Made by a program: the position numbers and the translations under genes. Shown one piece after another: positions 17,769 to 56,233 of a DNA stretch of 64,000 nucleotides. Source of the DNA: Candidatus Nomurabacteria bacterium (GTDB lineage: Bacteria > Patescibacteriota > Minisyncoccia > Phycocordibacterales > UBA9973); contig JBPOHU010000009.1 of the NCBI GenBank assembly GCA_052035195.1, positions 34,107-98,106 of the forward strand, read 5' to 3'. Under the pieces are notes generated by a model. That model was not told the DNA's origin, made no database searches, and saw only the letters and a list, made by a program, of their open reading frames with translations. Positions within the stretch are counted from its first letter, which is position 1, and each line of letters opens with the position of its first letter.

Positions 17769-17850
17769 GCCCGGGTGGCGAAATTGGTAGACGCACCAGT
17801 CTTAGGAACTGGTATCGTAAGATGTGAAGGTTCAAGTCCTTTCTCGGGCA
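17769..17850 (+). tRNA. tRNA-Leu (anticodon TAG), class II with long variable arm
   Basis: Acceptor gcccggg/ctcgggc, anticodon stem ccagt/actgg with loop cttagga, T-arm gaagg-ttcaagt-ccttt; no encoded CCA. Confidence 0.85.
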
Positions 17851-17881
17851 CAGTGTACAGAATGAGTTTTGTTTAAATTAC

Positions 17882-17905
17882 GCGCTTATAGCTTAGTTGT
17901 AGCGG
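17882..17905 (+). pseudogene. Degenerate fragment of the tRNA-Lys 5' half (acceptor + D-arm)
   Basis: gcgcttatagcTtagTtgGtagCGg compared with gcgcttatagctcagctggtagagc of the intact tRNA-Lys 50 nt downstream; cannot fold into a full tRNA. Confidence 0.5.
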
Positions 17906-17953
17906 TTCCACGTGCAATGAGTTCGAAGTTGTGAATTGTAAATTAAATATTAT

Positions 17954-18026
17954 GCGCTTATAGCTCAGCTGGTAGAGCAGCTCCCTTTTAAGGAGACGGT
18001 CGCAGGTTCGAATCCTGCTAAGCGCA
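17954..18026 (+). tRNA. tRNA-Lys (anticodon TTT)
   Basis: 73 nt; acceptor gcgctta/taagcgc, D-arm gctc-agctggta-gagc, anticodon loop cttttaa, T-arm gcagg-ttcgaat-cctgc. Confidence 0.85.
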
Positions 18027-18032
18027 CAAATA

Positions 18033-18062
18033 AAAATAACCCTATGTGGGTTATTTTTATTT
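18033..18062. terminator. Bidirectional terminator (aaataaccc-tatgt-gggttattt) at the centre of a larger inverted duplication
   Basis: Perfect 9-bp stem flanked by A-rich and T-rich tracts. Confidence 0.7.
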
Positions 18063-18390
18063 ATGCGCTTAAGTAAGCAAACTGCTTTGCTTACGTGCAG
18101 GATTCGAACAGCGGAGTCTTAATCCGCCAGCAGGCGGATAGACGAGCTGGTGCCTAGCCCGAGCTGTACGACTGGTACAGTGAGAGGCGAAGGAGAATCC
18201 TGCTTTTACTAATTTGTGGTCACACTATCTTTATTTATTGGTCACGAGTTACTAAGTCTACTCATCCTTCGGCAAGCTCAGGATTCCGTGGACTAAGTAC
18301 TCTCGACCCCGCCTCGCCTGTCTTACAGACATAGCTGTGGCCCACAAAGCTAGAAAAAGTGACGCAGGTTACTTTTTCTTTAACGCTTTG
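18063..18390 (-). ncRNA. ORF-free, highly structured region; candidate novel ncRNA(s) and/or tRNA-derived remnant (see findings)
   Basis: No credible ORF; multiple strong hairpins; contains an inverted partial copy of the tRNA-Lys 3' end, a tRNA-like 9-bp closing helix (gcaggattc...gaatcctgc) and blocks shared with 25121-25252. Confidence 0.35.
18345..18378 (-). terminator. Terminator of the tRNA-Cys/tRNA-Leu(TAA) minus-strand unit (gaaaaagt-aacctgcgtc-actttttc)
   Basis: 8-bp stem followed on the minus strand by U-rich tract. Confidence 0.55.
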
Positions 18391-18473
18391 TGCCCGAGGC
18401 GAGACTCGAACTCGCACGACATTACTGTCTGAGGATTTTAAGTCCTCTATGTCTACCATTCCATCACTCGGGC
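18391..18473 (-). tRNA. tRNA-Leu (anticodon TAA), class II
   Basis: Reverse complement gcccgag..gagga-cttaaaa-tcctc..long variable arm..gcgag-ttcgagt-ctcgc-ctcgggc-a. Confidence 0.85.
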
Positions 18474-18500
18474 AATATTTATATTTTATTGTACTTACAG

Positions 18501-18572
18501 AGGCCTGGGTGGGAATCGAACCCGCGTATAAAGATTTTGCAGATCTCTGCCTTACCACTTGGCTACCAGGCC
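18501..18572 (-). tRNA. tRNA-Cys (anticodon GCA)
   Basis: Reverse complement ggcctgg-ta-gcc-aagtggtaa-ggc..gagat-ctgcaaa-atctt..gcggg-ttcgatt-cccac-ccaggcc; one C:A mismatch in T-stem. Confidence 0.8.
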
Positions 18573-24995: not shown

Positions 24996-25078
24996 GCGTC
25001 GGTGGTAGAGTGGTCAATTACATCAGACTGTAAATCTGACGCCTTCGGGCTACGCAGGTTCAAATCCTGCCCGGCGCA
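24996..25078 (+). tRNA. tRNA-Tyr (anticodon GTA) with long variable arm
   Basis: Acceptor gcgtcgg/ccggcgc (one G:U), anticodon stem-loop catcag-actgtaaatct-gac, variable arm gccttcgggc, T-arm gcagg-ttcaaat-cctgc. Confidence 0.8.
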
Positions 25079-25082
25079 CAAA

Positions 25083-25124: not shown

Positions 25125-25252
25125 GTCTCGCCGAGGAGTAAGCCAACTGCTTGGTTTACGTCAGGATTTTGAAAGGCACAGCGATGCTGATAGGCGAGCG
25201 AGCCGGGGTCGAGAGTACTTATGAGCGAAGCGAATTAGTAACTCGTGACCAA
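25121..25252 (+). repeat. Two conserved sequence blocks (A: 9-bp hairpin + CAGGATT; B: ggcgag..cggggtcgagagtactta...ttagtaactcgtgaccaa) also present in 18063-18318
   Basis: Block A is the same orientation in both loci with a compensatory base change in the stem; block B is inverted relative to A in the other locus. Confidence 0.6.
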
Positions 25253-25321
25253 ATCCTGTTGCAAAAGACTCGAAGGAAAATCCTGCCCTCAAAAAAAACT
25301 AAATGCTATACTTATTTCATA

Positions 25322-26272
25322 ATGAAACGCATCGGTATTCTTCGTGGCGGAATAAGTCCTGAATATAGTATCTCTCTTAAGACTGGCGGAGCAGTTATGG
25401 AGGCTTTGCACGAAGCAGGGTTTGAGGCTATTGATATGCTACTCGATAAAGAAGGAGTGTTGCATATCAAAGGAATACCTTCTAACTTAGAGAAAGCCCA
25501 GTCAGCAGTAGATTATATTTGGAATGCTCTTCACGGAGAGTTTGGAGAAGATGGCAAGTTGCAACAAGTGTTAGACCAATACGGTATTTCTTATAGTGGC
25601 TCTGGTGTATCAGCTTCAGCCCAAGCTTTCAATAAAAATGTTGCTAAAGAAAGAGCGGAAAGTCTGGGTATCAAAACTCCAAAATCAATACTCGTTATGC
25701 CTGACGGCTCTGAATCAGTCGCTGAGGTTACAAATCGTATTTATAAAACGATGGCTCCTCCTTGGGTTGTTAAACCTCTCTCTGGCGGATCATCAGTAAA
25801 TACTTTCTTTGCCCTTACTCCTCTTGATTTGTCACAAGTTGTTGAAGAAGCTATTTCTCATGAGCAACCTCTTTTGATTGAGCAACATATTTCAGGTACC
25901 GAGGTAGCAGTAGGAGTGATAGATGAATTTAGAAATAAAAAAGAATACGTTTTACCAGTAATAGATATAGATTCTCCAAATATGGGAGTTCTTTCTCACG
26001 AAAGAAGATATGAATCTCATAGTAAAGACGCTTCAAGACTTCGAACAGATGAAAGGCAAAAACTTAGTGAATTAGCTCAGTCTCTTCATCGGTCCCTTGG
26101 AGCTAAAGATTATTCACAAAGCGAGTTTGTGGTTGATAGATTCGGCAAGATATGGTTTTTAGAGATAGATACTCATCCTGCTCTTCATAAAGATGCACCT
26201 TTTTATAAGGCTCTGGAAGCAGTAGGGGCAACACTAACAGAATTTGTTCAAAGTGTTATATCAAAACAATAG
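25322..26272 (+). CDS. ddl: D-alanine--D-alanine ligase; start moved to MKRIGILRGG
   Basis: N-terminal IGILRGGISPEYSISLKTG, ATP-grasp motifs; the 171-nt upstream extension of the ORF is in a structured leader and lacks Ddl homology. Confidence 0.85.
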   Translation: MKRIGILRGGISPEYSISLKTGGAVMEALHEAGFEAIDMLLDKEGVLHIKGIPSNLEKAQSAVDYIWNALHGEFGEDGKLQQVLDQYGISYSGSGVSASAQAFNKNVAKERAESLGIKTPKSILVMPDGSESVAEVTNRIYKTMAPPWVVKPLSGGSSVNTFFALTPLDLSQVVEEAISHEQPLLIEQHISGTEVAVGVIDEFRNKKEYVLPVIDIDSPNMGVLSHERRYESHSKDASRLRTDERQKLSELAQSLHRSLGAKDYSQSEFVVDRFGKIWFLEIDTHPALHKDAPFYKALEAVGATLTEFVQSVISKQ

Positions 26273-26327
26273 AAAAATCAAATTTTGATGTTGTGGTATA
26301 ATTATTATTATTATAAATAAAGACTTT

Positions 26328-27452
26328 ATGAACTTAAAACCACAAAAACCATCTTTTATTACCGAAGAAGAGAGTCTGTCATTAAAAAAAGATAACTCTT
26401 TGATTGTTGAAATTGATGCTTTTTCAAGTGCTGTAGAAGAATTATTTTTTATAGAAAATCCACAATATAAAAAGCCTCAACCGGGTGTTATTGATCTTCT
26501 TGATAAGTATTTAGCATCTTCTACTATTACTCCAGTTTTTATTTATTATCCATGGAAAGCAGTTGTTGTAAAAACTGTTCCAGAAGATATTTATTTTATG
26601 CTTCGCACTGCTCGTAATCGTTTTATAATAAGTCATGAAGAACAAAATGATTACCGAAATCTCCACGTCGCTATTGCAGGTCTTTCTGTAGGTTCAGCTA
26701 TCCTCTCATCAATAGTTGTAAATGGTGGTTCAAAAAAAATGAAAATTGCTGATTTTGACACGGCAGAAATTACTAATTTAAATCGAATGAGAGCAAAACT
26801 TACTGATATTGGAGAAAATAAAGCTTTTATTGCCGCTAAAGAGGTATGGGAACTCGATCCTTACGCAGAGCTTGATCTTTGGAGTGAGGGTATTTCAAAA
26901 GATAGTTTAAATAAGTTTCTTCTTGACCCAAAAGTGGATGTATTTGTAGATGAAATGGATAGTCTTGATTTAAAAATTGCTGCACGTTTTGTTTGCAGAG
27001 AAGCTGGAATACCTGTAGTTATGGCAACAGACAATGGAGATGGGGTCATTCTTGATGTTGAAAGATTTGATCTTGATAAAAAACAAGAAATTTTTCACGG
27101 TCTTCTTGGTGCTGTAACACCAAAAGATTTTGAAAATATTGATTATAAGATGTGGTTACAGCTTGCGACAAAAATTGTTGGACCAACATATCTTACACCT
27201 AGGATGCAGGAGTCTTTATCTGTGATAGGAAAAAATATTCCGTCTGTGCCTCAACTTGGAACAACGGCCAACATAGCAGGTGCGGCAGTATCATTTTGCC
27301 TTAGACGACTTGCTTCAAAACTTCCACTTAATTCAGGTAGATATACAGTTGGCCTTGAAGAAAAAATAATACCGGAATATATGAGTGATGAAGCAGTTAA
27401 AGAAAGAGAAAAAAACACAGAATTTTTTATTAGTCAATTTGGAAAAAAGTAG
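26328..27452 (+). CDS. E1-like/ThiF-MoeB-MccB family adenylyltransferase with ~85-aa N-terminal extension
   Basis: Gly-rich nucleotide loop VAIAGLSVGSAI preceded by RTARNRFIISHEEQ (ThiF-type Rossmann start) at residue ~113 rather than ~35; no C-terminal rhodanese or CxxC pair obvious. Confidence 0.6.
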   Translation: MNLKPQKPSFITEEESLSLKKDNSLIVEIDAFSSAVEELFFIENPQYKKPQPGVIDLLDKYLASSTITPVFIYYPWKAVVVKTVPEDIYFMLRTARNRFIISHEEQNDYRNLHVAIAGLSVGSAILSSIVVNGGSKKMKIADFDTAEITNLNRMRAKLTDIGENKAFIAAKEVWELDPYAELDLWSEGISKDSLNKFLLDPKVDVFVDEMDSLDLKIAARFVCREAGIPVVMATDNGDGVILDVERFDLDKKQEIFHGLLGAVTPKDFENIDYKMWLQLATKIVGPTYLTPRMQESLSVIGKNIPSVPQLGTTANIAGAAVSFCLRRLASKLPLNSGRYTVGLEEKIIPEYMSDEAVKEREKNTEFFISQFGKK

Positions 27453-27465
27453 TAATTTTTGTTTT

Positions 27466-28899
27466 ATGTTTAGATTTATAGGACAAAAAAAACAACTACC
27501 TCTTGATGTTTTTTATACGACCATTCGTGATGTTCCTGCTTACAAAAAATTTATAGAAAAAAACGGTGTAAATTATCATGATATTAAAAGTATTGATGAT
27601 TTTACAAAATATGTTCCGGTAATGAATAAAGATAATTATTTGAAAAGCTATCCTTTCATAGATCTTGTTAAAAAAGGTATTGTTCCTCCTATGGTGTCAG
27701 CAAGCTCAGGATCTTCAGGAAAACCTTTTTACTGGCCACGTGGAGATGAGCAAGAAATTCGCGGAGGAAAACTTCATGAAAAAATTTTTCGAGATATTTT
27801 TAATATCGAAGGACAAAGAACTCTTGTGATAGTTTGTTTTTCTATGGGGAACTGGATAGCAGGGACATTTACAGCCGCATCTTGTCGTTATGTAGCAAAA
27901 CAAAAAAGAATGAATCTTTCTATTATTACTCCGGGAATTGAAAAGGAAGATATTCTCGCCGTCCTTCGTGATCTTGCACCAGAGTTTGAAACAGTTGTTC
28001 TTGCAGGCTATCCACCATTTTTGATGGACGTTATCACTGAATCAAAATCAAGAGGGATACCGCTAGATGTTTTTAAAATAAAATTTCTTTTTGCTGGTGA
28101 GGGGTTTTCTGAACCATGGAGAGAGCTTATTTGTAGCGCTGTAAATATAAACAATAGTCTTTTGGATACAGTTAGCGTTTATGGAACAGCAGACGCTGGA
28201 GCTCTTGGTCATGAAAATCCGCTTACAATTTTTTTACGTAAAAAAGCAACAGAAAATTTAAATTTCAGAGATGAGCTTTTTGGGGATATTGGTTTTGTTC
28301 CAAGTCTTGTTCAGTTTGATCCAGATGCTATTTATTTTGAGCTTATTAATGAGCAGCTTGCTTTTACAACAGATTCAGGTATTCCTCTTATTAGATACGA
28401 TATAAAAGATAAAGGGTCTGTTATAAATCAGACAAAAATAGTTTCAGTTCTAAAAAAATTTAATTTATATGATGAAGCAGAGCATTTTTTAAAGAAATGG
28501 CCTTACCCCATGGTAGCTCTTTTCGGAAGGTCTGATGTTGCGGTAACTTTCTATGCACTTAATATTTATCCAGAAAATATAAAAGCAGCTGTTGAACAAA
28601 GCGGTCTATTGTCAAAGCTTACCGGTAAGTTTATTGCTCGTGTTGAGTCTAACGAAGATCAAACAGTTCAAAAGCTTATTATTAATTTTGAAACATTAGA
28701 AAATATCATTGTAAATGACAATCTCATCGAGGAGACAAAAAGTTCCGTATTTGAAAATCTAACACATCTTAATACAGAATACAGAAAACTCCATAACGCT
28801 ATTGGGGACAGAGCCTTACCAGATATTGAGTTTAGTAATTTTGGTCATGAATTATTTAAATTAAGAAAAAATAAACAATCATGGATAAAGAAACAATAA
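27466..28899 (+). CDS. PaaK-like (phenylacetate-CoA ligase / coenzyme F390 synthetase family) adenylate-forming enzyme
   Basis: P-loop-like SSGSSGKPFYWP matching the (S/T)SGTTGKP box of the PaaK/F390-synthetase branch of the ANL superfamily; length 477 aa; start at MFRFIGQ. Confidence 0.6.
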   Translation: MFRFIGQKKQLPLDVFYTTIRDVPAYKKFIEKNGVNYHDIKSIDDFTKYVPVMNKDNYLKSYPFIDLVKKGIVPPMVSASSGSSGKPFYWPRGDEQEIRGGKLHEKIFRDIFNIEGQRTLVIVCFSMGNWIAGTFTAASCRYVAKQKRMNLSIITPGIEKEDILAVLRDLAPEFETVVLAGYPPFLMDVITESKSRGIPLDVFKIKFLFAGEGFSEPWRELICSAVNINNSLLDTVSVYGTADAGALGHENPLTIFLRKKATENLNFRDELFGDIGFVPSLVQFDPDAIYFELINEQLAFTTDSGIPLIRYDIKDKGSVINQTKIVSVLKKFNLYDEAEHFLKKWPYPMVALFGRSDVAVTFYALNIYPENIKAAVEQSGLLSKLTGKFIARVESNEDQTVQKLIINFETLENIIVNDNLIEETKSSVFENLTHLNTEYRKLHNAIGDRALPDIEFSNFGHELFKLRKNKQSWIKKQ

Positions 28900-29960
28900 A
28901 TAGTGAGTTTGTTATAAAGAAAATTGTTTCTGAGAGTATGAATACTCCTTCGGGGGACAACTGTCAGCCTTGGTATTTTTCTATAAAAAATTCAACTCTT
29001 TTTGTTTATAAAAAAGATGAAGGTAATAATAACTACTTAGATTTTGAATCAAGGGGGACACTTTTGGCCCATGGTGCTTTAGTTGAAAATATATCTTTAG
29101 TCGCAAGACATTATGGTTATAGTATAGAAAGTACTTTTTTTCCAGAAAAAGATAAAAAAGACTTAGTAACAACAATTAGTTTTTTAGAAAATAATTCTTT
29201 AAATAAAGAAGAAGATGATCTTTTTGAGTTTTTACCAAAGAGGTCTACAAATAGAAAACAATACTTTAAGAAAGCTATTTTAGAAAAAGATAAAGAATAC
29301 CTATTAAGTAATCTAGGTCAGAACAATGTAACTCTTGATTTTATAGGAGATGATTCGGATAAAAAAAATATCTTTATTTCAACAACTCAAATGGAAAGAG
29401 TAGCTCTACAAAACAAGTTTTTACATAAACTCTTTTTCAGTAGCATCGTTTGGTCACAAAAGGAAGAACAAGAAAAAAAACAAGGACTTTATTTAAAAAC
29501 TATGGAGTTACCACCACCAGTTGCTGTTTTCTTTAGATTACTTAAATTTTGGCCGATTGCTAAGTTTTTGTCAAAAATCAGCTTTTCAAAAAAAGTCGCC
29601 GAGAACAACGCATCTTCATATCAGTCTTCTTATCCCGTTATTTTTTCTATAAAAAATACAGACCCTATTTCTTATATTGAACTAGGTATGGCTGTAGAGC
29701 GTTTTTGGCTTAGAGCAACAAAATTAGATATTGCTGTTCAGCCACTAGCTGGAGTATTATATATGTATCAGCGATTACATGAAGAGGGTAATAAAGATGC
29801 TGTTTTATCAAAAGAAGAAGTTCGTCTAATAGAAAATAGTTATCAAAAAATTAAAAATTTTACTTCGGATAGTGATGCTATAGTTTCTATGATCTTAAGA
29901 GTAGGGTATTCAAAAAAAGCTTCAGCAATATCTTCAAAAAAAGAACCTGAATTCTTATAG
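28881..29960 (+). CDS. Nitroreductase-fold protein, double-lobed (SagB/McbC-type dehydrogenase-like or Acg-like)
   Basis: N-terminal PSGDNCQPW box (nitroreductase FMN-binding start) and a second nitroreductase-like half near the C-terminus; 19-nt overlap with the upstream gene. Confidence 0.55.
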   Translation: MDKETINSEFVIKKIVSESMNTPSGDNCQPWYFSIKNSTLFVYKKDEGNNNYLDFESRGTLLAHGALVENISLVARHYGYSIESTFFPEKDKKDLVTTISFLENNSLNKEEDDLFEFLPKRSTNRKQYFKKAILEKDKEYLLSNLGQNNVTLDFIGDDSDKKNIFISTTQMERVALQNKFLHKLFFSSIVWSQKEEQEKKQGLYLKTMELPPPVAVFFRLLKFWPIAKFLSKISFSKKVAENNASSYQSSYPVIFSIKNTDPISYIELGMAVERFWLRATKLDIAVQPLAGVLYMYQRLHEEGNKDAVLSKEEVRLIENSYQKIKNFTSDSDAIVSMILRVGYSKKASAISSKKEPEFL

Positions 29961-29970
29961 TTTAAACAAT

Positions 29971-31599
29971 ATGGATATTATAAAAAATATAGATTTACTT
30001 TCGGTTGGGCTTGCTATTGCTGGTACAGGAGTACTTGGTTTCTTAGTCTTTTTTAGTAATAAAAAAAGCATTACTAATAAATCTTTTCTTTATTTTTCAC
30101 TTATTACTATTTGTTGGAGCACTATAAACTATTTAAATTATCAGTCTGTTAATCCTTCTTACGGTTTCCTTTTGATAAGACTTACTATTTTTTTTGGTAT
30201 TTTCCATGCTTTTTCTTTTTATAATCTTTTTACTGTTTTTCCTAATGAAAGTTATATTTTTTCAAGGTTACATCGTTTTATCTTAATACCTTGGGTTTTT
30301 ATTGTTGGATTGCTTACACTGACTCCGTATGTTTTTTCAGGTATAGAAGAAATGCAGGAGGGTAGAATAGTAGAAGTTACTAACGGTCCATTATTACCTC
30401 TCTATGGGATAACAACAATAGTTTTAATATTAGTTGGAATAGTTAAACTTATTAAGAAAGTTTTGGTTTCTAAAGATATCTTACGTAAACAAGTAAAAGC
30501 TATATTGCTTGGTACTGTTATAACATTTTCTCTTCTTATTGTTTTTAATTTAGTTTTACCTGCTTTTTTTAATAACCCTAAGTTCGTGCCACTTGGTGCA
30601 CTTTTCCTTTTTCCGTTCATTGCTTTTACTTCTTATGCAATTTTGAAACAAAAGTTATTTCGTGTAAAAGTTGTATCAACAGGGTTTATTGTTTTTGTTT
30701 TATCCGTTGTTCTTTTTTTTGAGATTATTTATGCAGATACTACAAGCTTAATAATTTTTAGAAGTAGTGTTTTTATACTCTCTCTTATATTTGGGATAAA
30801 CCTAATAAGATCAGTTTTGCGAGAAGTTGAGCAGCGTGAAAAAATTGAGACTTTGGCTAAACAATTGCAAGATGCAAATGAAAAACTAAAAGGTTTAGAT
30901 AAACTAAAAACAGAATTCCTTTCTCTTGCCTCACACCAACTCCGTAGCCCTCTTACCGCTATCAAGGGGTATGCTTCCATGCTTTCTGAAGGAGCATTTG
31001 GTAAATTGGATGCAAAAAAATCTGAAGCAGTAAATCGTATTTATACTTCAGCACAGGGACTGGTTAACATCGTTGAAGACCTTTTGAATATTTCAAAAAT
31101 TGAGCAAGGAGGTATGAAATATGAGTTTATGCCAACAAGTCTTTCTTCTGTTGTAGATACTTTATTCAACGAAATGAAAGTTCCAGCTGAGAGTAAACAT
31201 CTTGAATTTAGTTTAGATATGGATAAGCACGATAAGTTTATCGTTAGTGCTGACCCTGTTAAGCTTAAGCAAGTTTTCTTAAACTTAGTAGACAATAGTA
31301 TCAAGTACACCCAAAAAGGTTTTGTAAAAATAGCACTAAAAAGAGTTGAAGATAAAATAGTTTTCTCAGTATCTGACAATGGTATGGGAATTTCCCCAGA
31401 AACTAAATCTAAACTTTTTGAAAAGTTTAGTCGTGGCGAAGGTGGTAAAACAAATACAGGGGGAAGTGGATTAGGCTTATACTTAGCGCAACAAATAGCG
31501 AAAGCTCACAAAGGAGATATTGTTATTGAATCAGAAGGTCTTGGAAAAGGATCAGTCTTTACAGTAGCCATTCCTTCTAGTGGAAAATACCCTAACTAA
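29971..31599 (+). CDS. Sensor histidine kinase with ~7 N-terminal TM helices (orphan, no adjacent response regulator)
   Basis: H-box LASHQLRSPLTAIKGY, N-box LVDNSIKYT, G-boxes DNGMGIS and GGSGLGL; ~270-aa polytopic N-terminus. Confidence 0.85.
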   Translation: MDIIKNIDLLSVGLAIAGTGVLGFLVFFSNKKSITNKSFLYFSLITICWSTINYLNYQSVNPSYGFLLIRLTIFFGIFHAFSFYNLFTVFPNESYIFSRLHRFILIPWVFIVGLLTLTPYVFSGIEEMQEGRIVEVTNGPLLPLYGITTIVLILVGIVKLIKKVLVSKDILRKQVKAILLGTVITFSLLIVFNLVLPAFFNNPKFVPLGALFLFPFIAFTSYAILKQKLFRVKVVSTGFIVFVLSVVLFFEIIYADTTSLIIFRSSVFILSLIFGINLIRSVLREVEQREKIETLAKQLQDANEKLKGLDKLKTEFLSLASHQLRSPLTAIKGYASMLSEGAFGKLDAKKSEAVNRIYTSAQGLVNIVEDLLNISKIEQGGMKYEFMPTSLSSVVDTLFNEMKVPAESKHLEFSLDMDKHDKFIVSADPVKLKQVFLNLVDNSIKYTQKGFVKIALKRVEDKIVFSVSDNGMGISPETKSKLFEKFSRGEGGKTNTGGSGLGLYLAQQIAKAHKGDIVIESEGLGKGSVFTVAIPSSGKYPN

Positions 31600-32971
31600 G
31601 GGATATACCCTGAGCATTTTGCTCAACTTTATATCCTAGTGCTTCAAGTTCAGACCTGATTGCATCAGATGTTGCATAGTCTTTATTTTCTCTAGCTAAT
31701 TTCATTTTTTCTAATAGTATTGTTGCTTCTTCGCTAATAGAAAATTCTGGAGTTGAAACTAAGTCCAAACCTAACACTTCATCAAAAGATAGTAGGGTAG
31801 CGTATTTATCTTGCCTAGAGATATTTTCATCTGCAAGCATTTTCCAAACAACAGCAAGAGCTTTGGCTGTATTGATGTCTTCAGATATAGATTCGACAAA
31901 ATCTTGTTTGTAAGAATCTATTATATTGCCACCAGACTCTTTTATTGATGCAAAATTTTGAAGTTTTTTAAGTTGTGCATTGGCAGAAGAAAGTGCTTCC
32001 CATGTAAAGTTTAGTGGCTTGCGATAGCTTGTTTGCATGGCCAAAAGGCGTATAGATAGTGGGTTTATGTTGTGTCCTTCTATATCAGAGATAGTATAAA
32101 AATTGTGTTTACTTTTACTCATTTTTTCTCCGTCTACATTTAGAAAAGCATGGTGAACCCAAAATCTAACAAAGTCATGTCCTGTAGAACATTCACTCTG
32201 AGCTATCTCATTTTCATGGTGTACAGGGATATGGTCTATTCCTCCGGTGTGAATATCAATAGTTTCTCCTAAGTAGTGCATACTCATAGCAGAGCACTCT
32301 ATGTGCCAACCAGGGAAGCCTTCACCCCAAGGACTAGGCCAGTACATACTATGCTCTGCAAATCTTCCAACTCTTTTAAACCAGAGAACAAAATCAGCAG
32401 GATGCTTTTTTTCTTCATCAACTATAACGTCATCACGAGCGCCAATTTCTTTGTCGGATATTTTTTGTCCAGATAAAGATCCGTAATCTTTGAATGTTTG
32501 AGTATCAAAATAAATACCGGTTTCTGTTTCGTAAGCGTGTCCTTTTTGAATTAGAGTTTCAACCAAAGAAATCATTTCAGGTATATGCTCTGTCGCTTTT
32601 GCTTCGGCTGTGTTTGGCGACAGTACATTTATTGCCTTCATACTTTCGTGGAAATAATCAGTATAAAGTTTGGCAATATCCCATACGCTTTTACCTTCTG
32701 ATTTTGCTTTACCTTCAAATTTGTCGTCACCTTGGTCGCTGTCATTTGTAAGGTGTCCTACATCGGTAATATTCATTACGTGTTTTACATCATAACCAAG
32801 ATATGAAAGTGTTCTACGTAAAATATCGTCCCCGATATATTTGCGCATATGGCCGATGTGGGTGTAATCATAAACAGTTGGTCCACAAGCATAAAGAGTC
32901 ACAACGGTTCCATTAAGAGGAGAGAACACTTCGATTGATTTTGATTTTGTATTGTATAGATTTAGAGCCAT
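31592..32971 (-). CDS. cysS: Cysteine--tRNA ligase
   Basis: YACGPTVYDYTHIGH (HIGH region) and KMSKSKHNF. Confidence 0.9.
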   Translation of the reverse strand: MALNLYNTKSKSIEVFSPLNGTVVTLYACGPTVYDYTHIGHMRKYIGDDILRRTLSYLGYDVKHVMNITDVGHLTNDSDQGDDKFEGKAKSEGKSVWDIAKLYTDYFHESMKAINVLSPNTAEAKATEHIPEMISLVETLIQKGHAYETETGIYFDTQTFKDYGSLSGQKISDKEIGARDDVIVDEEKKHPADFVLWFKRVGRFAEHSMYWPSPWGEGFPGWHIECSAMSMHYLGETIDIHTGGIDHIPVHHENEIAQSECSTGHDFVRFWVHHAFLNVDGEKMSKSKHNFYTISDIEGHNINPLSIRLLAMQTSYRKPLNFTWEALSSANAQLKKLQNFASIKESGGNIIDSYKQDFVESISEDINTAKALAVVWKMLADENISRQDKYATLLSFDEVLGLDLVSTPEFSISEEATILLEKMKLARENKDYATSDAIRSELEALGYKVEQNAQGISLS

Positions 32972-52331: not shown

Positions 52332-54746
52332 TTGTTAGATACTATGAGTCTTTACGAAAAGCTTACAAGTGCAAAAAGCGAAGAGGACGTAAAGGATGCT
52401 TACATAAAAGCTATAGGACTTAAAGACGTAAATAAAGGTCTTATTGATATTCGAACAGATCGTGTATGGTTTGAAGCCAAAGATAAAGGGAATACTACTA
52501 CTTATGAGATGTTTACTCAGCTATTACACTATGTGCAAATGGCTCGAGATAAAGGAGAAAAGATACCTGCTATTTTGTGCGTCATTGATACCAAAAAAGC
52601 AGCAATAATGAAAACAGAAGATGCTCTGCCGTTACTTGAAAAAAAAGAAATTAAATGGGGTAAATCAGCAAGTAATTATACACAAGAAGCACTTGAGATG
52701 GTTTCTACATATATTGGTACTTATTTTGTTTCATACAATATTGCAACTCACGAAAAAGAATTTATTGAAGCTATTCGTAGCGCTATTAAAACAGGAGAGA
52801 TTATTCGTACTCAGATAACCCCAGACAATCTTAAACAAGTATTTGATAAATGGATTGATATGATTGGTAAAGAGATCAAAGATGTTGATGCTGAAAAATA
52901 CTCTTTACTGTTTTTTGCTGACATTATGCACGATGGTACAGTTTCTACTCATAAGGATTTACCAGCAAGTCTTATATATAAAGACGGGGTTCCTGCATTT
53001 GCGCTTGGAGGTACCATTTATGAACTTGGTAGTAAAGAAGGTTATAGAAAGTTTTGGGCTATTTATGACAAACCACCAAAACAAGAACATAGAGATTATC
53101 TTCTCGAGAGACGTGACAGCTTGATCCCCATTGATGAGCGTAGTTTCAAAGGTGCTTATTACACACCGCTTCACGTTGTAGATAAGGCTTATGATAAATT
53201 AACCGAAACACTAGGGGATAATTGGCAACAAGAATATATTGTTTGGGATATGTGTTGTGGGGTTGGAAATTTAGAGGTAAAACATTCAAACCCTCGTAAT
53301 ATTTATATGAGTACTCTCGATGCTCCTGATATAGACGTGATGCGTGCTACAAAAACATGTGTTGCTGCTACAAAGTTTCAATATAATTACCTAAACGACG
53401 ATATCGCTGATGATGGTAAGATTGACTATAATCTTACAAACAAAGTTCCTGAAAGTTTGCGTAAGGCCATTAAAGACGGAAAGAAAATTTTAGTTTTGAT
53501 TAATCCACCATATGCAGAAGCAACTAATGCAGATAATACCTCTAAGGGTAGTGATGCTGAAAATAAAACCGGAGTAGCAAAAACAAAATTTGCCAAAACA
53601 GCAATGGGTGAATATGGAAAGGCAAGTAATGAACTCTTTACACAATTTATTGTTCGAATCGCACAAGAAATACCAACAGCAACTTTAGCAATTTTTAGTA
53701 AACTTAAATATATTAACTCTCAAACACTTGATGTTTTTAGAGATAAATGGAACTCTAGTTATTTAGGAGGTTTTATAGTTCACAGTAAAGCATTCGATGG
53801 TTTAAAAGGGGAGTTTCCAATCGGCTTTCTTATTTGGAAAACATATTCAAGTATAGACGGCAAGACACCTATAATTAAAATTACTACAGAAGTTTTAGAT
53901 AAGAATGCAAGACCAATCGGAGAGAAAACTTTTTATAATTTATCCAGCGACCAATTGTTAACTAATTGGGTAGTAAGACCAAAAGCAAATAAAATAGATA
54001 CTGTTCCTTTAAAAAATACTATAACACCAGCTACTTCTGATAAGGATTTACGTGGTACAAAGTGGTCTGATAATGCGATTGCTTGGTTAAATTGTCCTGG
54101 TAATGAAACACAACAAACAAATTCAATAGCACTACTATCTTCAGGTTTTAGTAGCGGTAGAGGATTCTTTCTTAATAAAAATAATTTATGGCAGGCATCA
54201 ATTATTTTTACTGTTCGTCGTATTATAAAACCGACTTGGCAAAATGATCGGGATCAATTTTTGCAACCAACAGGTGAGCTTAGTGAAGAATTTAAAAATG
54301 ATTGTTTAGTCTGGATGCTTTTTAATGGAAGTAATCTCACCGCAAGTGCAAATGACCTTGAGTGGAATGGAAAAAAGTGGAGTATTGTAAATCACTTCAT
54401 ACCTTTTACTGAAGAAGAAGTTATAGCTACTGGTCGTTTTGAATCTAATTTCATGGTTGAGTATATGAAAGGGAAGGAATTTTCATCAGAGGCTCGTGCT
54501 GTAATCGAAGAAGGTAAGAAGTTGTGGCAAGCATATTTTTCACACACAGATGAGAGAAATGTAAGAGACGAACTTAAACTCAATCGTCCTGATGTAGGAT
54601 GGTATCAAATAAGAAACGCCTTAAAGAAACGTAATGAAAGCGCTGATTTGCCACCAGTGAGTTTTTCTAGTTTTGAAAAAGCATACAAAGAACTTTCACA
54701 AAAATTAGAACCACAAGTCTACGAATTAGGTTTTCTTAAAAAATAG
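52332..54746 (+). CDS. Type IIL (MmeI-family) restriction-modification enzyme: N-terminal PD-(D/E)xK nuclease, gamma-class N6-adenine methyltransferase, C-terminal target-recognition domain
   Basis: D..x..WFEAKDKG nuclease motif near residue 40-55; AYYTPLHVV (motif X), DMCCGVGNLE (motif I), LINPPYAEAT (motif IV NPPY); order and spacing mirror MmeI. Confidence 0.75.
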   Translation: MLDTMSLYEKLTSAKSEEDVKDAYIKAIGLKDVNKGLIDIRTDRVWFEAKDKGNTTTYEMFTQLLHYVQMARDKGEKIPAILCVIDTKKAAIMKTEDALPLLEKKEIKWGKSASNYTQEALEMVSTYIGTYFVSYNIATHEKEFIEAIRSAIKTGEIIRTQITPDNLKQVFDKWIDMIGKEIKDVDAEKYSLLFFADIMHDGTVSTHKDLPASLIYKDGVPAFALGGTIYELGSKEGYRKFWAIYDKPPKQEHRDYLLERRDSLIPIDERSFKGAYYTPLHVVDKAYDKLTETLGDNWQQEYIVWDMCCGVGNLEVKHSNPRNIYMSTLDAPDIDVMRATKTCVAATKFQYNYLNDDIADDGKIDYNLTNKVPESLRKAIKDGKKILVLINPPYAEATNADNTSKGSDAENKTGVAKTKFAKTAMGEYGKASNELFTQFIVRIAQEIPTATLAIFSKLKYINSQTLDVFRDKWNSSYLGGFIVHSKAFDGLKGEFPIGFLIWKTYSSIDGKTPIIKITTEVLDKNARPIGEKTFYNLSSDQLLTNWVVRPKANKIDTVPLKNTITPATSDKDLRGTKWSDNAIAWLNCPGNETQQTNSIALLSSGFSSGRGFFLNKNNLWQASIIFTVRRIIKPTWQNDRDQFLQPTGELSEEFKNDCLVWMLFNGSNLTASANDLEWNGKKWSIVNHFIPFTEEEVIATGRFESNFMVEYMKGKEFSSEARAVIEEGKKLWQAYFSHTDERNVRDELKLNRPDVGWYQIRNALKKRNESADLPPVSFSSFEKAYKELSQKLEPQVYELGFLKK

Positions 54747-54751
54747 TTTTT

Positions 54752-55555
54752 ATGACTAAGCATTATTATTTATATATTGATGATTCAGGATCAAGGTTTC
54801 CGGATAAAAATTCTGAAAAAAGAAATGATGGAATGGATCATTTTGCTTTAGGTGGAATTTTAGTTGAGAGTAATAATAGAGATGTTTTAAAGAAAAAATA
54901 TATTGAATTTTGTCAAAAATGGCAAATTCATTACCCTTTACATTCAACTGAAATTAGAGGAATGAGAAGAAGTTTTTCTTGGCTTGAAAAAAGCTCAAAA
55001 CAAAAAGATAAATTTTTAGAAGAACTAACTAATTTTTTAGTAGAGATTCCAGTTATAGGTTTTGCCGCAGTTATTCATAGGCCCGGGTATAATTTTCGCT
55101 ATAAATATAAATACGGAGATAAAAGATGGTGGATGTGTAAAACAACTTATTCAATTTTAATTGAAAGAGTTTCAAGGTATGTCAAAGATAATAATGGAAC
55201 TTTTGAGATTAGATTTGAGGGCGTTGGACCGAAAGAAGATAAGGCTATTATTCAGTATGCAAAAGATCTAAAAAATATAGGATCACCTTTTGATCCTTTT
55301 ACTTCTAATAAGTATAATCCTTTAAAAAAAGAAGATTATAAAAAAATTATTTTAGGAGAACCAAGGCAACGTTTTAAAGAAAATTTATTTATACAAATAG
55401 CAGATTTATATTTATATCCTATGGTAAAAAGAAAATATGACCCGTCATATAAATCATGGAATATTTTATTTGATAATAAAAAAGTGATAGATTCTTTTGT
55501 AGAAGAAATAGATTTAAATGATAAAGGAATTAAATATAGTTGTTTTGACTTTTAG
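54752..55555 (+). CDS. DUF3800 family protein
   Basis: N-terminal YLYIDDSGS plus conserved His/Asp positions characteristic of DUF3800; 5 nt downstream of the RM gene. Confidence 0.6.
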   Translation: MTKHYYLYIDDSGSRFPDKNSEKRNDGMDHFALGGILVESNNRDVLKKKYIEFCQKWQIHYPLHSTEIRGMRRSFSWLEKSSKQKDKFLEELTNFLVEIPVIGFAAVIHRPGYNFRYKYKYGDKRWWMCKTTYSILIERVSRYVKDNNGTFEIRFEGVGPKEDKAIIQYAKDLKNIGSPFDPFTSNKYNPLKKEDYKKIILGEPRQRFKENLFIQIADLYLYPMVKRKYDPSYKSWNILFDNKKVIDSFVEEIDLNDKGIKYSCFDF

Positions 55556-55563
55556 GTATAAAG

Positions 55564-55594
55564 CAAAAATCCTGAGTTTCCTCAGGATTTTTTG
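55564..55594 (+). terminator. Rho-independent terminator (aaaatcctgag-tttc-ctcaggatttt + T-run)
   Basis: 11-bp stem. Confidence 0.8.
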
Positions 55595-55735
55595 CCGGCT
55601 CGCAAACGCGAACCCCCGGGCAATGCCCATGTCTACATATTAACAGAATATGTAAAAAAATCAATAGCTGTGTGGATAACTTAATTATCTCTAAAACCAT
55701 GGTATTAGTCATATTCTTTTATATACTAAATAAGT

Positions 55736-56233
55736 ATGAATAAATTATTTTTTATTTTCTTAGTAATAGCTATTGGTGGAGTAATCTTGAAAGATCTTCT
55801 TGAGAGTAAACCAGAAAACAAAAAGAAAAAACTATTATATCAATATAAGAAAAAAGATTTTTTGATCACGCGAGCAGAGCACGAGTTTTTTGATATTTTG
55901 GTTGAAATATTTGGAGATAAATATCATGTGTTTACCCAAGTCCATCTTCCAACAATTCTTGAACACAAAATAAATGGGCAAAATTGGAAAGGATCTTTCA
56001 GCCATATAAATGGCAAGTCAGTAGACTTTGTTATTTGTGATAAGGAATATATAAAGCCGCTTGTAGCTATAGAACTAGACGACAAAAGTCATGAAAGGTT
56101 AGATAGGATAGAGCGCGATAGTGAAGTAGAAAGAATGCTTAAAGAAGCAGTAATGCCATTGATAAGATTCGAAAATCACGGGTCTTTTGATAAGGAAGAA
56201 ATAAATAAAACAATTTCTGAATTTTTGAAATAA
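55736..56233 (+). CDS. DUF2726 family protein (NERD/PD-(D/E)xK nuclease-like), N-terminal TM anchor
   Basis: ITRAEHEFFDIL...VDFVICDK...PLVAIELDDKSH...ERMLKEAVMPLIRF matches the DUF2726 core. Confidence 0.6.
   Translation: MNKLFFIFLVIAIGGVILKDLLESKPENKKKKLLYQYKKKDFLITRAEHEFFDILVEIFGDKYHVFTQVHLPTILEHKINGQNWKGSFSHINGKSVDFVICDKEYIKPLVAIELDDKSHERLDRIERDSEVERMLKEAVMPLIRFENHGSFDKEEINKTISEFLK

Follow-up and report, generated by a model that had tools for sequence, protein, structure and literature searches.

Gene content and layout of the locus

The window, a 64,000-nt stretch of Candidatus Nomurabacteria DNA, contains a four-gene unit at 26328-31599 that follows ddl and includes a sensor kinase as its fourth member. 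The features are:

26294..26302, plus strand: extended -10-like box TGGTATAAT in the 55-nt spacer between ddl and gene 1; candidate operon promoter
26328..27452, plus strand: gene 1, 374 aa; by homology, a stand-alone ThiF-like adenylating cyclase of the TrzS/OxzB type, with a family-specific N-terminal domain (aa ~16-96), a ThiF Rossmann core (aa 97-286) and C-terminal helices
27466..28899, plus strand: gene 2, 477 aa; PaaK-fold acyl/aryl-adenylate-forming ligase with P-loop SSGSSGKP and an invariant C-terminal Lys470
28881..29960, plus strand: gene 3, 359 aa; FMN oxidase, proposed C-alpha/C-beta desaturase
29971..31599, plus strand: gene 4, 542 aa; 7-TM sensor histidine kinase
31611..31625, plus strand: terminator-like hairpin from a pattern scan, 12 nt 3′ of the kinase stop codon; possible operon end

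The sequence-only reading had described genes 1 to 3 as a co-oriented, tightly packed cassette starting 55 nt after ddl behind an extended -10, and all of this holds: the genes lie where it placed them, ddl ends at 26272, and the box is present, as are the four motifs it quoted (RTARNRF, AIAGLSVGSAI, SSGSSGKP and PSGDNCQPW). Its 19-nt overlap between genes 2 and 3 also stands, whereas genes 1 and 2 lie 13 nt apart instead of 14. Between gene 3 and the kinase there are only 10 nt, which places the latter in the same transcription unit. The ATG start of gene 2 is supported by homologue alignment; longer readings are possible from TTG 27439 or GTG 27385. This AT-rich region shows no excess of promoter-like sites (19 against 24.4 expected), so the -10 box alone is weak evidence; terminator-like sites showed no enrichment either (5 found, 3.5 expected). 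The hairpin falls inside the 3′ end of a convergent cysS.

Relation of the enzymes to oxazolone synthetases

TrzS, OxzB and TyzB/TyzC are oxazolone synthetases that combine ThiF and flavin oxidase activities and take small N-acyl amino acids as their substrates (PMC10404671, PMC12856293, bioRxiv 10.1101/2020.06.11.147165). Biochemical work on Rv1355c (TrzS) showed that it cyclises N-acyl-Trp in an ATP-dependent reaction and desaturates it in an O2-dependent one (PMC12856293), and the split pair of TyzB and TyzC performs the same chemistry (PMC10404671). Genes 1 and 3 match, as separate proteins, the N-terminal and the C-terminal half of the ‘Rv1355c family’ model NF005901: gene 1 at model positions 28-349 (274 bits, E = 2.5e-81) and gene 3 at positions 371-712 (159 bits, E = 1.3e-46). 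For these two genes, the earlier view that the cassette fits no described system was thus mistaken. Both score under the curated NF005901 cut-off of 476 bits, so their equivalence to TrzS is not established. Of the 150 top-ranking cluster representatives, 41 have at least 600 aa; most of these are fusions of ThiF and oxidase whose alignment covers gene 1 residues ~15-370. ThiF genes from all three gene orders reach 290-300 bits on the same model; the oxidase in orders B and C is an Acg-type paralogue that may act as a desaturase.

The N-terminal extension earlier ascribed to the E1-like protein is real, as the Pfam ThiF match begins at aa 97 (to 286) and leaves ~95 aa ahead of it. Searched alone, the extension matched NF005901 at positions 27-101 (E = 9.6e-8). 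Against Pfam it gave no match with E ≤ 10, which means that no domain of the PqqD/RRE type for peptide recognition is detected in it. Judged by these matches, it is part of the NF005901 family and not a detectable RiPP peptide-binding domain. ATP-site residues are invariant across the gene 1 family, in which no conserved Cys or CxxC was found. Gene 3, rightly called double-lobed before, scored 119 bits on the Acg/Rv3131 family of double-lobed FMN oxidoreductases and 150 bits on PRK14851, matched the Acg structure 2ymv in the PDB (E = 8e-4), and gave a weak Pfam nitroreductase match. Neither its PSGxNxQPW motif (aa 23-31) nor its RxTNR motif (aa 121-125) varies among 19 module oxidases.

Gene 2 had no Pfam match and scored weakly against TIGR02155 (PaaK; 45.9 bits, cut-off 646) and FlxY (E = 0.008). 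Foldseek searches with its AF2 model (pLDDT 84) returned PaaK1/2 first (best E = 1.6e-19), followed by the CoA-independent ligases NatL2, AjiA1 and ClxA (E 1e-14 to 1e-16); the nearest solved structures are phenylacetate-CoA ligases, which are genuine CoA ligases. Conservation across the family is high: its alignment has 66 invariant columns. Homologues adjoin a ThiF gene in 45/47 Patescibacteria-type loci, stand alone at ~39% identity in ~32 Nostoc-type genomes (Nostoc, Desmonostoc) and occur without the pathway in some Patescibacteria (L001, L016); given these lone homologues, the family is not exclusive to the pathway. We propose gene 2 to be a CoA-independent N-acyl-amino-acid-forming enzyme, which would fill the place of the N-acyl-amino-acid synthase present in every described oxazolone cluster. 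Its sequence and fold fit either direct amide formation or a CoA thioester and cannot tell the two apart.

Conservation with a 7-TM kinase and putative acid-supplying genes

Searches with gene 2 and with the kinase sensor domain (nt 29971-30825) yielded 90 partnered loci, 47 and 43, respectively. A ThiF gene, ligase, oxidase and kinase with the same 7-TM domain were all present in 40 of the 47 Patescibacteria-type loci from the gene 2 search; reciprocally, the oxidase adjoins the kinase in 36/43 metagenome loci. In total, 58 loci carry all four genes (median span 5.7 kb; 51 co-oriented), and across loci at least six gene orders occur. Conservation in dozens of distant relatives implies that the arrangement is more than chance. 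The sequence-only reading had named a scenario that would count against it, namely an ordinary MoeB/ThiF in a group of genes that do not travel together; what we found is that gene 1 is neither, that its extension is conserved, and that the genes are strongly co-conserved. A shared ddl-E1-PaaK-nitroreductase neighbourhood had been envisaged too, of which the enzyme trio, together with the kinase, is conserved. The ddl adjacency, once taken as a clue to function, is common to the window and its closest relative L004 only, and is therefore not a property of the module.

Three fusion proteins were recovered: PaaK-ThiF (P0380), ELFV dehydrogenase-PaaK-ThiF (P0346; two NCBI accessions, Patescibacteria) and ThiF-lyase (P0297). 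Two of these are singletons, for which an artefact of assembly or gene calling is conceivable. The neighbourhoods of the ~90 loci contain no conserved N-acyltransferase family, whereas the ligase is nearly always present; nor did we find an E2 or JAB gene among conserved neighbours, conserved downstream catabolic genes, or a conserved small ORF in the relatives. In L009 and L085, the module encloses a Peptidase_M19 (dehydropeptidase-family) gene.

Many loci carry a potential source of acid in addition. A tyrosine-ammonia-lyase-like gene is present in 26 loci (best match the flexirubin tyrosine ammonia-lyase FlxA, 614 bits) and a tryptophan-dehydrogenase-like gene in 13 (best match ScyB, 293 bits), with both together in none; 39 of the 90 partnered loci thus carry their own lyase or dehydrogenase. 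The window operon is the minimal version, with neither: no aromatic lyase, ELFV-type (Glu/Leu/Phe/Val family) dehydrogenase, response regulator or PilB gene was found in the 64-kb window, which bears out the remark that the kinase has no regulator nearby.

The kinase comprises HisKA_7TM (PF16927, aa 15-232, 46.9 bits), HisKA (PF00512, aa 313-380, 67 bits) and HATPase_c (PF02518, aa 428-536, 96 bits) domains. Its 7-TM domain is conserved in every kinase adjoining biosynthetic genes (E 1e-14 to 1e-123) and travels with these genes in nearly every relative. By this sequence comparison, the kinase is a member of the module, not the orphan bystander it was taken for. Many carriers come from dark groundwater metagenomes, according to the locus titles.

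Proposed pathway and competing explanations

On balance, and with slightly better than even confidence, we read the locus as a four-gene operon that makes a small molecule of the oxazolone type and pairs this pathway with a membrane sensor of its own. The enzymes look like a split version of a recently discovered oxazolone synthetase in which an ATP-dependent acid ligase replaces the usual acyltransferase; the earlier reading was right in its overall scheme, in which a carboxylate is activated and a flavin enzyme carries out an oxidation. The gene 2 ligase would adenylate a carboxylic acid, probably aromatic, and couple the resulting acyl-AMP directly to an amino acid at its amino group, yielding an N-acyl amino acid. 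Homology to characterised enzymes suggests the next two steps: gene 1 would adenylate the amino-acid carboxylate, the amide oxygen closing the ring to an oxazol-5(4H)-one, and the gene 3 FMN oxidase would desaturate C-alpha/C-beta. The outcome would be an oxazolone of the 4-alkylidene or 4-arylidene kind, or the N-acyl dehydro-amino acid that its hydrolysis gives. The best reading of the product is accordingly an aryl-acyl amino-acid oxazolone or a dehydro-amino acid. The TrzS and TyzC oxidases require O2, whereas many Patescibacteria live without oxygen. In many relatives, the acid may be made in cis by the mutually exclusive tyrosine-ammonia-lyase-like enzyme or ScyB-like aromatic amino-acid dehydrogenase; lacking both, the window operon would need acid from the host or environment.

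That dependence also suits a different explanation, in which the compound detected by the kinase comes from outside, for example an aromatic acid or N-acyl amino acid from the host, and the enzymes convert it, inactivate it or turn it into something usable, with no self-made signal: without an acid-making enzyme in the window operon, the substrate must be external. PaaK relatives are classically catabolic, and the Peptidase_M19 gene in two modules fits such a role, as does the host dependence of Patescibacteria (PMC11665869). However, pairs of ThiF cyclase and flavin oxidase are known from biosynthesis only (PMC10404671, PMC12856293, PMC12479983), the lyases and dehydrogenases in 39/90 loci, making acid from an amino acid, point to production, and downstream catabolic genes are not conserved; we consider scavenging unlikely. 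Decidedly unlikely is that gene 2 is an ordinary aryl/acyl-CoA ligase, with N-acylation left to an acyltransferase encoded at an unlinked site and the rest as in TyzACB. Its closest solved structures would agree with this, and flexirubin biosynthesis pairs a tyrosine ammonia-lyase with a putative CoA ligase, FlxY, to which gene 2 is weakly similar. Yet the neighbourhoods hold a ligase and no conserved acyltransferase, CoA-free condensing enzymes exist within the PaaK family (NatL2, AjiA1, ClxA), and the fusions PaaK-ThiF and ELFV dehydrogenase-PaaK-ThiF suggest that the ligase passes its product directly to the cyclase. Moreover, many Patescibacteria are not known to synthesise CoA.

We rejected RiPP, MoeB and defence readings of the operon. 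Tailoring of a RiPP-like peptide or cell-wall precursor by an MccB/TOMM-like E1 and a SagB/McbC-like dehydrogenase, as first suspected from supposed RiPP hallmarks, is very unlikely: the gene 1 extension belongs with the N-terminal region of the TrzS family, alignment to MccB and PaaA is limited to ~232 core residues, gene 3 scores far under the SagB cut-off of 78 bits, there is no YcaO and no conserved small ORF, and gaps of 13 and 10 nt are too small for a precursor ORF; the ddl adjacency stops at the nearest relative. Sulfur-carrier or ubiquitin-like chemistry (MoeB, ThiF, Cap2-type E1) with a generic NAD(P)H nitroreductase, including an anti-phage E1/E2-type system, could draw on the Pfam ThiF match and on weak matches to MoeB, ThiF and Cap2-like models (16-53 bits), but these lie far under cut-offs and 4 to 10 times below the Rv1355c-family score of gene 1. 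PADLOC detected Rossmann-core similarity alone (≤ 29 bits), no Cys/CxxC is conserved, E2 and JAB genes are absent from the conserved neighbours, and, in line with the earlier statement that there is no ThiS-like carrier, the sole GG-ending ORF in 64 kb lies antisense inside gene 2, making this explanation barely conceivable. Finally, a conjugated arylidene-oxazolone chromophore bound by the 7-TM kinase could form a light or redox sensor, paralleling the tyrosine ammonia-lyase and coumarate ligase that supply photoactive yellow protein. Arylidene oxazolones resemble the GFP chromophore, the lyase-like gene and aryl-acid ligase co-occur, and synthase and membrane kinase are strictly co-inherited. 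The dark origin of many carriers speaks against it and a signal with its receptor explains the same data more simply, so we hold it highly improbable.

Under the favoured reading of an oxazolone-type signal, co-inheritance suggests a functional tie between the 7-TM kinase and the pathway, most simply with the kinase as a receptor for the product or a precursor. This points to a small-molecule signalling system in ultrasmall Patescibacteria, which are considered to synthesise next to nothing themselves. No DNA-binding regulator linked to the kinase was found in the relatives' loci; there, the kinase would signal to stand-alone receivers and, in certain lineages, also to a type IV pilus ATPase of receiver-PilB make-up; such genes follow some of the kinases. 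L023 and L029 share the order kinase, receiver, receiver-PilB, PilC and a pilin-like gene.

Operon layout and the ThiF-oxidase pair

The operon consists of genes 1-3 and the kinase gene only. Consensus promoter and terminator matches were not enriched in the region, and the operon structure is therefore based on spacing instead: gene 1 (ThiF-like, E1-like) begins after a 55-nt spacer behind the end of ddl at 26272, as checked on the sequence, and the kinase gene starts 10 nt from gene 3 (FMN oxidase, FDO). The open reading frames of the trio are as a sequence-only reading had described them, and the peptide motifs quoted there were all found; its 19-nt overlap between genes 2 and 3 was likewise recovered, whereas its 14-nt gap between genes 1 and 2 measures 13 nt on the sequence.

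Features of the operon and its surroundings (window positions)
17769-18572, four-tRNA cluster (Leu-TAG, Lys-TTT, Leu-TAA, Cys-GCA), divergent orientation
24996-25079, tRNA-Tyr (GTA), between clpB and ddl
26294-26302, TGGTATAAT, inside the 55-nt spacer after ddl
26328-27452, gene 1, ThiF-like protein, 374 aa
27466-28899, gene 2, PaaK-fold ligase, 477 aa from the ATG favoured by homologues
28881-29960, gene 3, FMN oxidase, 359 aa
29971-31599, gene 4, 7-TM sensor histidine kinase, 542 aa

Rfam returned five tRNAs and nothing else across the whole window, hence no riboswitch or further structured RNA beside the operon. The mechanical ORF start of ddl (TTG at 25151) probably lies too far upstream, with a conserved MKRIGILRGG start near 25319. 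G+C content falls to 0.31-0.33 at 28001-32000 (gene 3 and kinase) and is 0.30 at 54001-56000, the rest of the window ranging from 0.36 to 0.40.

Pfam places a ThiF domain at residues 97-286 of gene 1. Among NCBIfam models, NF005901 (Rv1355c family; 722 positions) aligns with gene 1 over positions 28-349 at 273.9 bits, the runner-up family scoring 69 bits, and over positions 371-712 at 159.2 bits with gene 3, whose Pfam nitroreductase match is marginal. Both scores, and even their sum of 433 bits from two polypeptides, fall below the curated whole-protein cut-off (476 bits), so genes 1 and 3 are best described as a subfamily related to NF005901, short of established equivalence. Rv1355c of Mycobacterium tuberculosis is TrzS, which converts N-acyl-tryptophan to an oxazolone by cyclising it with ATP and desaturating it with O2 (PMC12856293). 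OxzB of Pseudoalteromonas rubra, a fused protein, has this chemistry too (bioRxiv 10.1101/2020.06.11.147165; review PMC12596934), as do TyzB and TyzC, in which it is split over two proteins (PMC10404671). Given the two NF005901 halves and the occurrence of this chemistry in both fused and split form, genes 1 and 3 are a split pair of the oxazolone-synthetase type, interrupted by gene 2.

The N-terminal extension noticed earlier on gene 1 proved real: residues 1-105 align with NF005901 positions 27-101 (E = 9.6e-8), as is typical of that family. The same residues match zero Pfam families even at E <= 10; neither a peptide clamp nor another peptide-recognition domain is detectable in the extension, and such a reading was rejected. 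Across 24 homologues of gene 1, R96, N97, G118, G122, D142, N150-R153, K165 and D208/D211 of the nucleotide site are invariant, D211 being likened to TrzS D217 by motif position rather than by direct alignment to TrzS; no Cys is conserved, the two of gene 1 included. Gene 1 thus combines the N-terminal region of a TrzS-type ThiF protein with an intact ATP site. Its top structural neighbour is AclA (9egb), on which a literature search found nothing. An exhaustive comparison of gene 1 with 1.84 billion cluster representatives returned 865 clusters at E <= 1e-30; among the best 150 of these, 41 representatives are at least 600 aa long. By local domain mapping, most long representatives are ThiF-oxidase fusions of 730-770 aa, which align with gene 1 residues ~15-370 at 35-40% identity. 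The likeness of gene 1 to TrzS is thereby based on NF005901 together with the length and architecture of these representatives. As for gene 3, the FMN motifs PSGxNxQPW and RxTNR are invariant across 19 module oxidases, Acg is its sole solved relative by sequence, and the gene adjoins the ThiF gene with gene 2 alone between.

A ThiF fold, a nitroreductase-fold flavoprotein and carboxylate adenylation are also common to MccB, PaaA and the TOMM C-protein with SagB/McbC, and RiPP-like tailoring had been proposed for the trio from such E1 hallmarks. We give this idea little support: neither a peptide-recognition domain nor a precursor peptide nor YcaO was detected, and homology to TrzS predicts a small molecule as the substrate class, unlike in those systems. 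Similarly little speaks for E1 chemistry of the MoeB, ubiquitin-like or defence type. On gene 1, the ThiF and MoeB models reach 27-53 bits against cut-offs of 152-376, and the protein has no CxxC zinc site, GG-ended carrier or curated-level score that would place it among sulfur-carrier or Cap2-type proteins. The only GG-ending ORF in the 64 kb, a candidate ThiS/MoaD-like partner, is antisense and spurious. PADLOC E1-E2 models reach at most 29 bits, reflecting Rossmann-core similarity only, and a role in anti-phage defence was rejected.

The gene 2 ligase family and the supply of acids

Neither Pfam nor NCBIfam holds a model of its own for the gene 2 family, and no Pfam model matches it. Relatives of gene 2 number more than 3,000 matches, the top ones all from Patescibacteria. 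The family alignment contains 66 invariant columns; both SSGSSGKP (P-loop) and K470 (C-terminal catalytic Lys) are invariant in the family. Sequence profiles reach PaaK weakly (45.9 bits against TIGR02155, below its equivalog cut-off of 646). The AF2 model (pLDDT 84) displays a clear PaaK fold by Foldseek, with PaaK1/2 and BT_0428 at E ~1e-19 (PaaK1 2y27 at 1.6e-19), NatL2, AjiA1 and ClxA at 1e-14 to 1e-16 and GH3 amido synthetases at ~1e-9; gene 2 accordingly has the PaaK/ANL (adenylate-forming) fold.

Going by their structure titles, NatL2, AjiA1 and ClxA are PaaK-family structures with aromatic acids or their adenylates. In these benzoxazole pathways, the aromatic-acid adenylate is condensed with a second small molecule in a CoA-free reaction, which provides a precedent for direct N-acyl-amino-acid formation as proposed for gene 2. 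Gene 2 shares the fold of these enzymes but differs from them in sequence (14-16% identity), belongs to a family of its own and has an amino acid as its proposed acceptor.

Candidate acid-supply genes accompany the module in many of the related loci. An aromatic amino-acid ammonia-lyase (Pfam PF00221) occurs in 26 of 90 partnered loci, its best NCBIfam match being the flexirubin tyrosine ammonia-lyase FlxA (614-616 bits), and one lyase is nearer to histidine ammonia-lyase. An ELFV-type (Glu/Leu/Phe/Val family) dehydrogenase, best matched by the tryptophan dehydrogenase ScyB (293 bits), is found in 13/90; the two enzymes occur together in none of the 90 loci, and neither was found in the window. 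Both would take the amino group off an aromatic amino acid to give a carboxylic acid, a natural substrate of a PaaK-type ligase, and these accessory genes point to aromatic acids as the likely acyl donors. The pairing of lyase and ligase has a parallel in flexirubin biosynthesis, with FlxA (tyrosine ammonia-lyase) and FlxY (ligase). No N-acyltransferase family appeared among the conserved neighbours of 48 loci.

Other accessory genes are sporadic. SAM methyltransferases are a rare addition (six partnered loci), and radical-SAM proteins occur in L108 and L117. A Peptidase_M19 gene (membrane dipeptidase/dehydropeptidase family) lies within the module in two loci (L009:9517-10458 and L085:4831-5838); as this family hydrolyses dehydropeptides, such a placement would fit products that are dehydro-amino-acid amides. 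Two further loci (L012:10570-11115 and L099:1373-1909) encode a conserved protein of ~180 aa between the ThiF and oxidase genes, with the motif PLPFPDKGHRLF, an N-terminal hydrophobic stretch resembling a membrane anchor and zero Pfam matches. Directly upstream of the module in a Yanofskybacteria locus (L003:2237-4897) are indoleamine 2,3-dioxygenase-like and pterin-4a-carbinolamine dehydratase genes, putatively additional aromatic amino-acid enzymes.

Conservation of the module and its 7-TM kinase

Scanning species-representative genomes from gene 2 and surveying the hits by phmmer gave 80 loci. At least one partner gene was present in 47, all of Patescibacteria type, with a TrzS-type ThiF in 45, the oxidase in 41, a kinase sharing the 7-TM domain in 43 and all four genes in 40; several of the incomplete loci end at a contig edge. 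The ligase stood alone in the other 33 loci, comprising 32 Nostoc-type cyanobacteria (Nostoc, Desmonostoc) and L016. A reciprocal search with the 7-TM domain, for which an 8-sequence subset was used since the 18-sequence alignment was too divergent for a collection scan, recovered 43 metagenome loci by that domain alone. The oxidase gene adjoins the kinase gene in 36 of these and all four genes are present in 17, many contigs being short. Both scans together yielded 58 loci with all four genes (median span 5.7 kb), 51 of them fully co-oriented.

Besides the ThiF-ligase-FDO-kinase order of the window, we observed FDO-ThiF-ligase-kinase, ligase-ThiF-FDO-kinase and arrangements that include an additional gene, implying that linkage was kept through repeated rearrangement. 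ThiF genes from every gene order match NF005901 at 290-300 bits, and two kinds of oxidase occur, one of the Rv1355c/PRK14851 type and, in the orders labelled B and C, an Acg/Rv3131-type paralogue. Pathway steps are also linked by natural fusions, as judged from domain content: P0346 (1242 aa; two NCBI accessions on two Patescibacteria contigs) reads ELFV dehydrogenase-ligase-ThiF, while a ligase-ThiF (P0380) and a ThiF-lyase fusion (P0297) are singletons and candidates only. Source labels of the relatives include Nomurabacteria, Yanofskybacteria, Doudnabacteria, Magasanikbacteria, Niyogibacteria, Jorgensenbacteria and Saccharimonadales. The ddl adjacency, previously taken as a functional clue, is common to the window and its closest relative (L004) only, which also share cysS and corA downstream; other relatives differ upstream. 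Low G+C, patchy distribution and shuffled gene orders would fit a horizontal movement of the module within Patescibacteria.

The solitary cyanobacterial homologues come from ~32 Nostoc-type genomes (L044, L047, L048 and L050-L083 except L053, L055, L057, L059 and L072) and are ~39% identical to gene 2; neither ThiF nor oxidase nor 7-TM kinase lies within 8 kb of them, arguing that the ligase family has some function apart from the pathway. In Nostoc linckia NIES-25 (L048:7815-9419), the homologue is surrounded by genes for two Ser/Thr kinases, a hexapeptide transferase, DUF3352 and HrcA, a context that offers no hint of the chemistry.

The kinase is a HisKA_7TM sensor kinase, with Pfam matches to HisKA_7TM (PF16927; 46.9 bits), HisKA (67 bits) and HATPase_c (96 bits) above the respective cut-offs of 28.6, 26.9 and 26.4. 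All linked kinases have a homologue of its sensor (aa 1-285), with E from 1e-14 to 1e-123. We concur with the sequence-only reading that a cognate regulator is missing beside the kinase; there is no response regulator anywhere in the window. Elsewhere, a receiver-type regulator lies nearby in 20/90 partnered loci. Those inspected are stand-alone receivers of ~125-150 aa, and the two that were scanned contained no DNA-binding domain. Six loci (L019, L023, L024, L028, L029 and L098) encode a fusion of a receiver to a PilB-type ATPase; no PilB was found in the window. Two of these loci are arranged as follows.

Genes following the kinase in two receiver-PilB loci
L023:10526-17344, stand-alone receiver, receiver-PilB (T2SSE), PilC (T2SSF), large pilin-like protein with N-terminal methylation motif
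L029:12119-17181, stand-alone receiver, receiver-PilB (T2SSE), PilC (T2SSF)

This arrangement suggests that the kinase may exert direct phospho-control over the type IV pilus in some Patescibacteria. Another locus (L089:5252-8572) carries two tandem 7-TM kinases after an Acg-type oxidase, which may represent a duplicated receptor.

Proposed pathway, signalling potential and known relatives

By homology, an N-acyl amino acid would be adenylated and cyclised by the ThiF-type enzyme and then desaturated by the flavin-dependent oxidase; the ligase is proposed to make this N-acyl amino acid from an aromatic acid via the acyl-adenylate, free of CoA. The kinase would sense the product or its precursor and pass the signal to receivers and, in a subset of lineages, to the pilus ATPase. 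The window operon would then be a minimal form that needs an external acid. What ties kinase and synthase together is their co-inheritance, which makes the kinase a candidate receptor for the product.

Taken furthest, the module would give Patescibacteria a self-contained means of chemical signalling. Ligase, ThiF cyclase and oxidase would make an aromatic oxazolone or dehydro-amino acid that serves as autoinducer, and the co-inherited 7-TM kinase would sense it and phosphorylate receivers and receiver-PilB to switch type IV pili and thereby host attachment or motility. We put this full scheme forward tentatively and consider it rather unlikely to hold in every part; the module as a signalling system is nonetheless a substantial, unexplored possibility. 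A less likely rival explanation is a scavenging or signal-conversion role, which the predicted need of the window operon for external acid would favour, whereas the lyase or dehydrogenase genes of other partnered loci point to production. Alternatively, though with lower probability, gene 2 might be a conventional CoA ligase that depends on an unlinked acyltransferase. PaaK1/2 are indeed among its closest structural neighbours, and set against this are the lack of a conserved acyltransferase near the loci, the ligase-ThiF fusions and the CoA-free precedents. A chromophore-bearing kinase is a further alternative with little support.

Pathways built on a ThiF-oxidase pair are already known. OxzAB (P. 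rubra), TyzACB and TrzAS (Rv1355c-Rv1356c) all combine a ThiF-like ATP-dependent cyclase with a nitroreductase-superfamily flavin oxidase, fused or adjacent, as in the module. Genes 1 and 3 each cover one half of the Rv1355c model, the N-terminal domain of the model being matched as well, and TyzB/TyzC provide an earlier example of such a split (PMC10404671). Unlike these systems, the module has no N-acyltransferase of the OxzA/TyzA/TrzA kind but a PaaK-fold adenylating ligase in that position; in place of fatty acyl-CoAs, it probably draws on aromatic acids produced by a lyase or dehydrogenase; and it adds a dedicated 7-TM histidine kinase. The hosts here are Patescibacteria, whereas producers described so far come from Pseudomonadota, Actinomycetota and Planctomycetota (PMC12479983). 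The ThiF-nitroreductase pair is also common to the N-acyl dehydrotyrosine clusters (stieleriacines, thalassotalic and kyonggic acids), which consist of NasY, ThiF and nitroreductase with or without a methyltransferase, an occasional component of stieleriacine-type clusters and module loci alike; their end product may be a ring-opened N-acyl dehydro-amino acid rather than an oxazolone (PMC12479983). Their hallmark is an N-acyl amino acid synthase acting on activated fatty acids, in contrast to the ATP-dependent ligase and linked sensor kinase of the module.

In CqsA-CqsS, LuxM-LuxN and LqsA-LqsS, an autoinducer synthase lies beside, and is co-inherited with, a polytopic membrane histidine kinase without a large periplasmic domain. 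The module has the same synthase-kinase layout, but its synthases are unrelated in sequence, its kinase is a putative receptor, and its outputs would be stand-alone receivers and receiver-PilB instead of a phosphorelay that ends in a transcription factor.

To judge by the searchable literature, three elements are new: a PaaK-fold ligase family in place of the acyltransferase, the aromatic acid-supply enzymes, and the obligatory partnership with one 7-TM kinase family together with its spread over Patescibacteria. Nothing in that literature links oxazolones, a gene 2-type ligase or the 7-TM kinase to this group. Patescibacteria have tiny genomes with scant biosynthesis, so a small-molecule pathway of 4-6 genes in many lineages, beside one sensor kinase and in some also beside a putatively phospho-regulated pilus ATPase, is unexpected. 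Bacterial N-acyl oxazolones were found in 2020-2025 and are without an established function; their discoverers suspect signalling, with no receptor (PMC12856293). The module offers a candidate receptor for oxazolone-type molecules, a proposed CoA-independent route to N-acyl amino acids via a new PaaK-fold ligase family, and a clonable handle on how ultrasmall episymbionts, to whose lifestyle type IV pili are central (PMC12206443), might perceive one another or their hosts and regulate these pili. If true, the signalling reading would provide the first synthase-receptor signalling system in the Patescibacteria radiation, along with the first physiological role and receptor for bacterial oxazolones.

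Two Gordonia proteins (P0316, 781 aa; P0361, 820 aa) join a TrzS-type ThiF domain to an N-terminal region of ~420-460 aa, and NCBI names both 'diguanylate cyclase'. Going by these names, they may constitute a second link between an oxazolone-type cyclase and signalling, echoing the c-di-GMP genes that adjoin trzAS in M. tuberculosis (PMC12856293).
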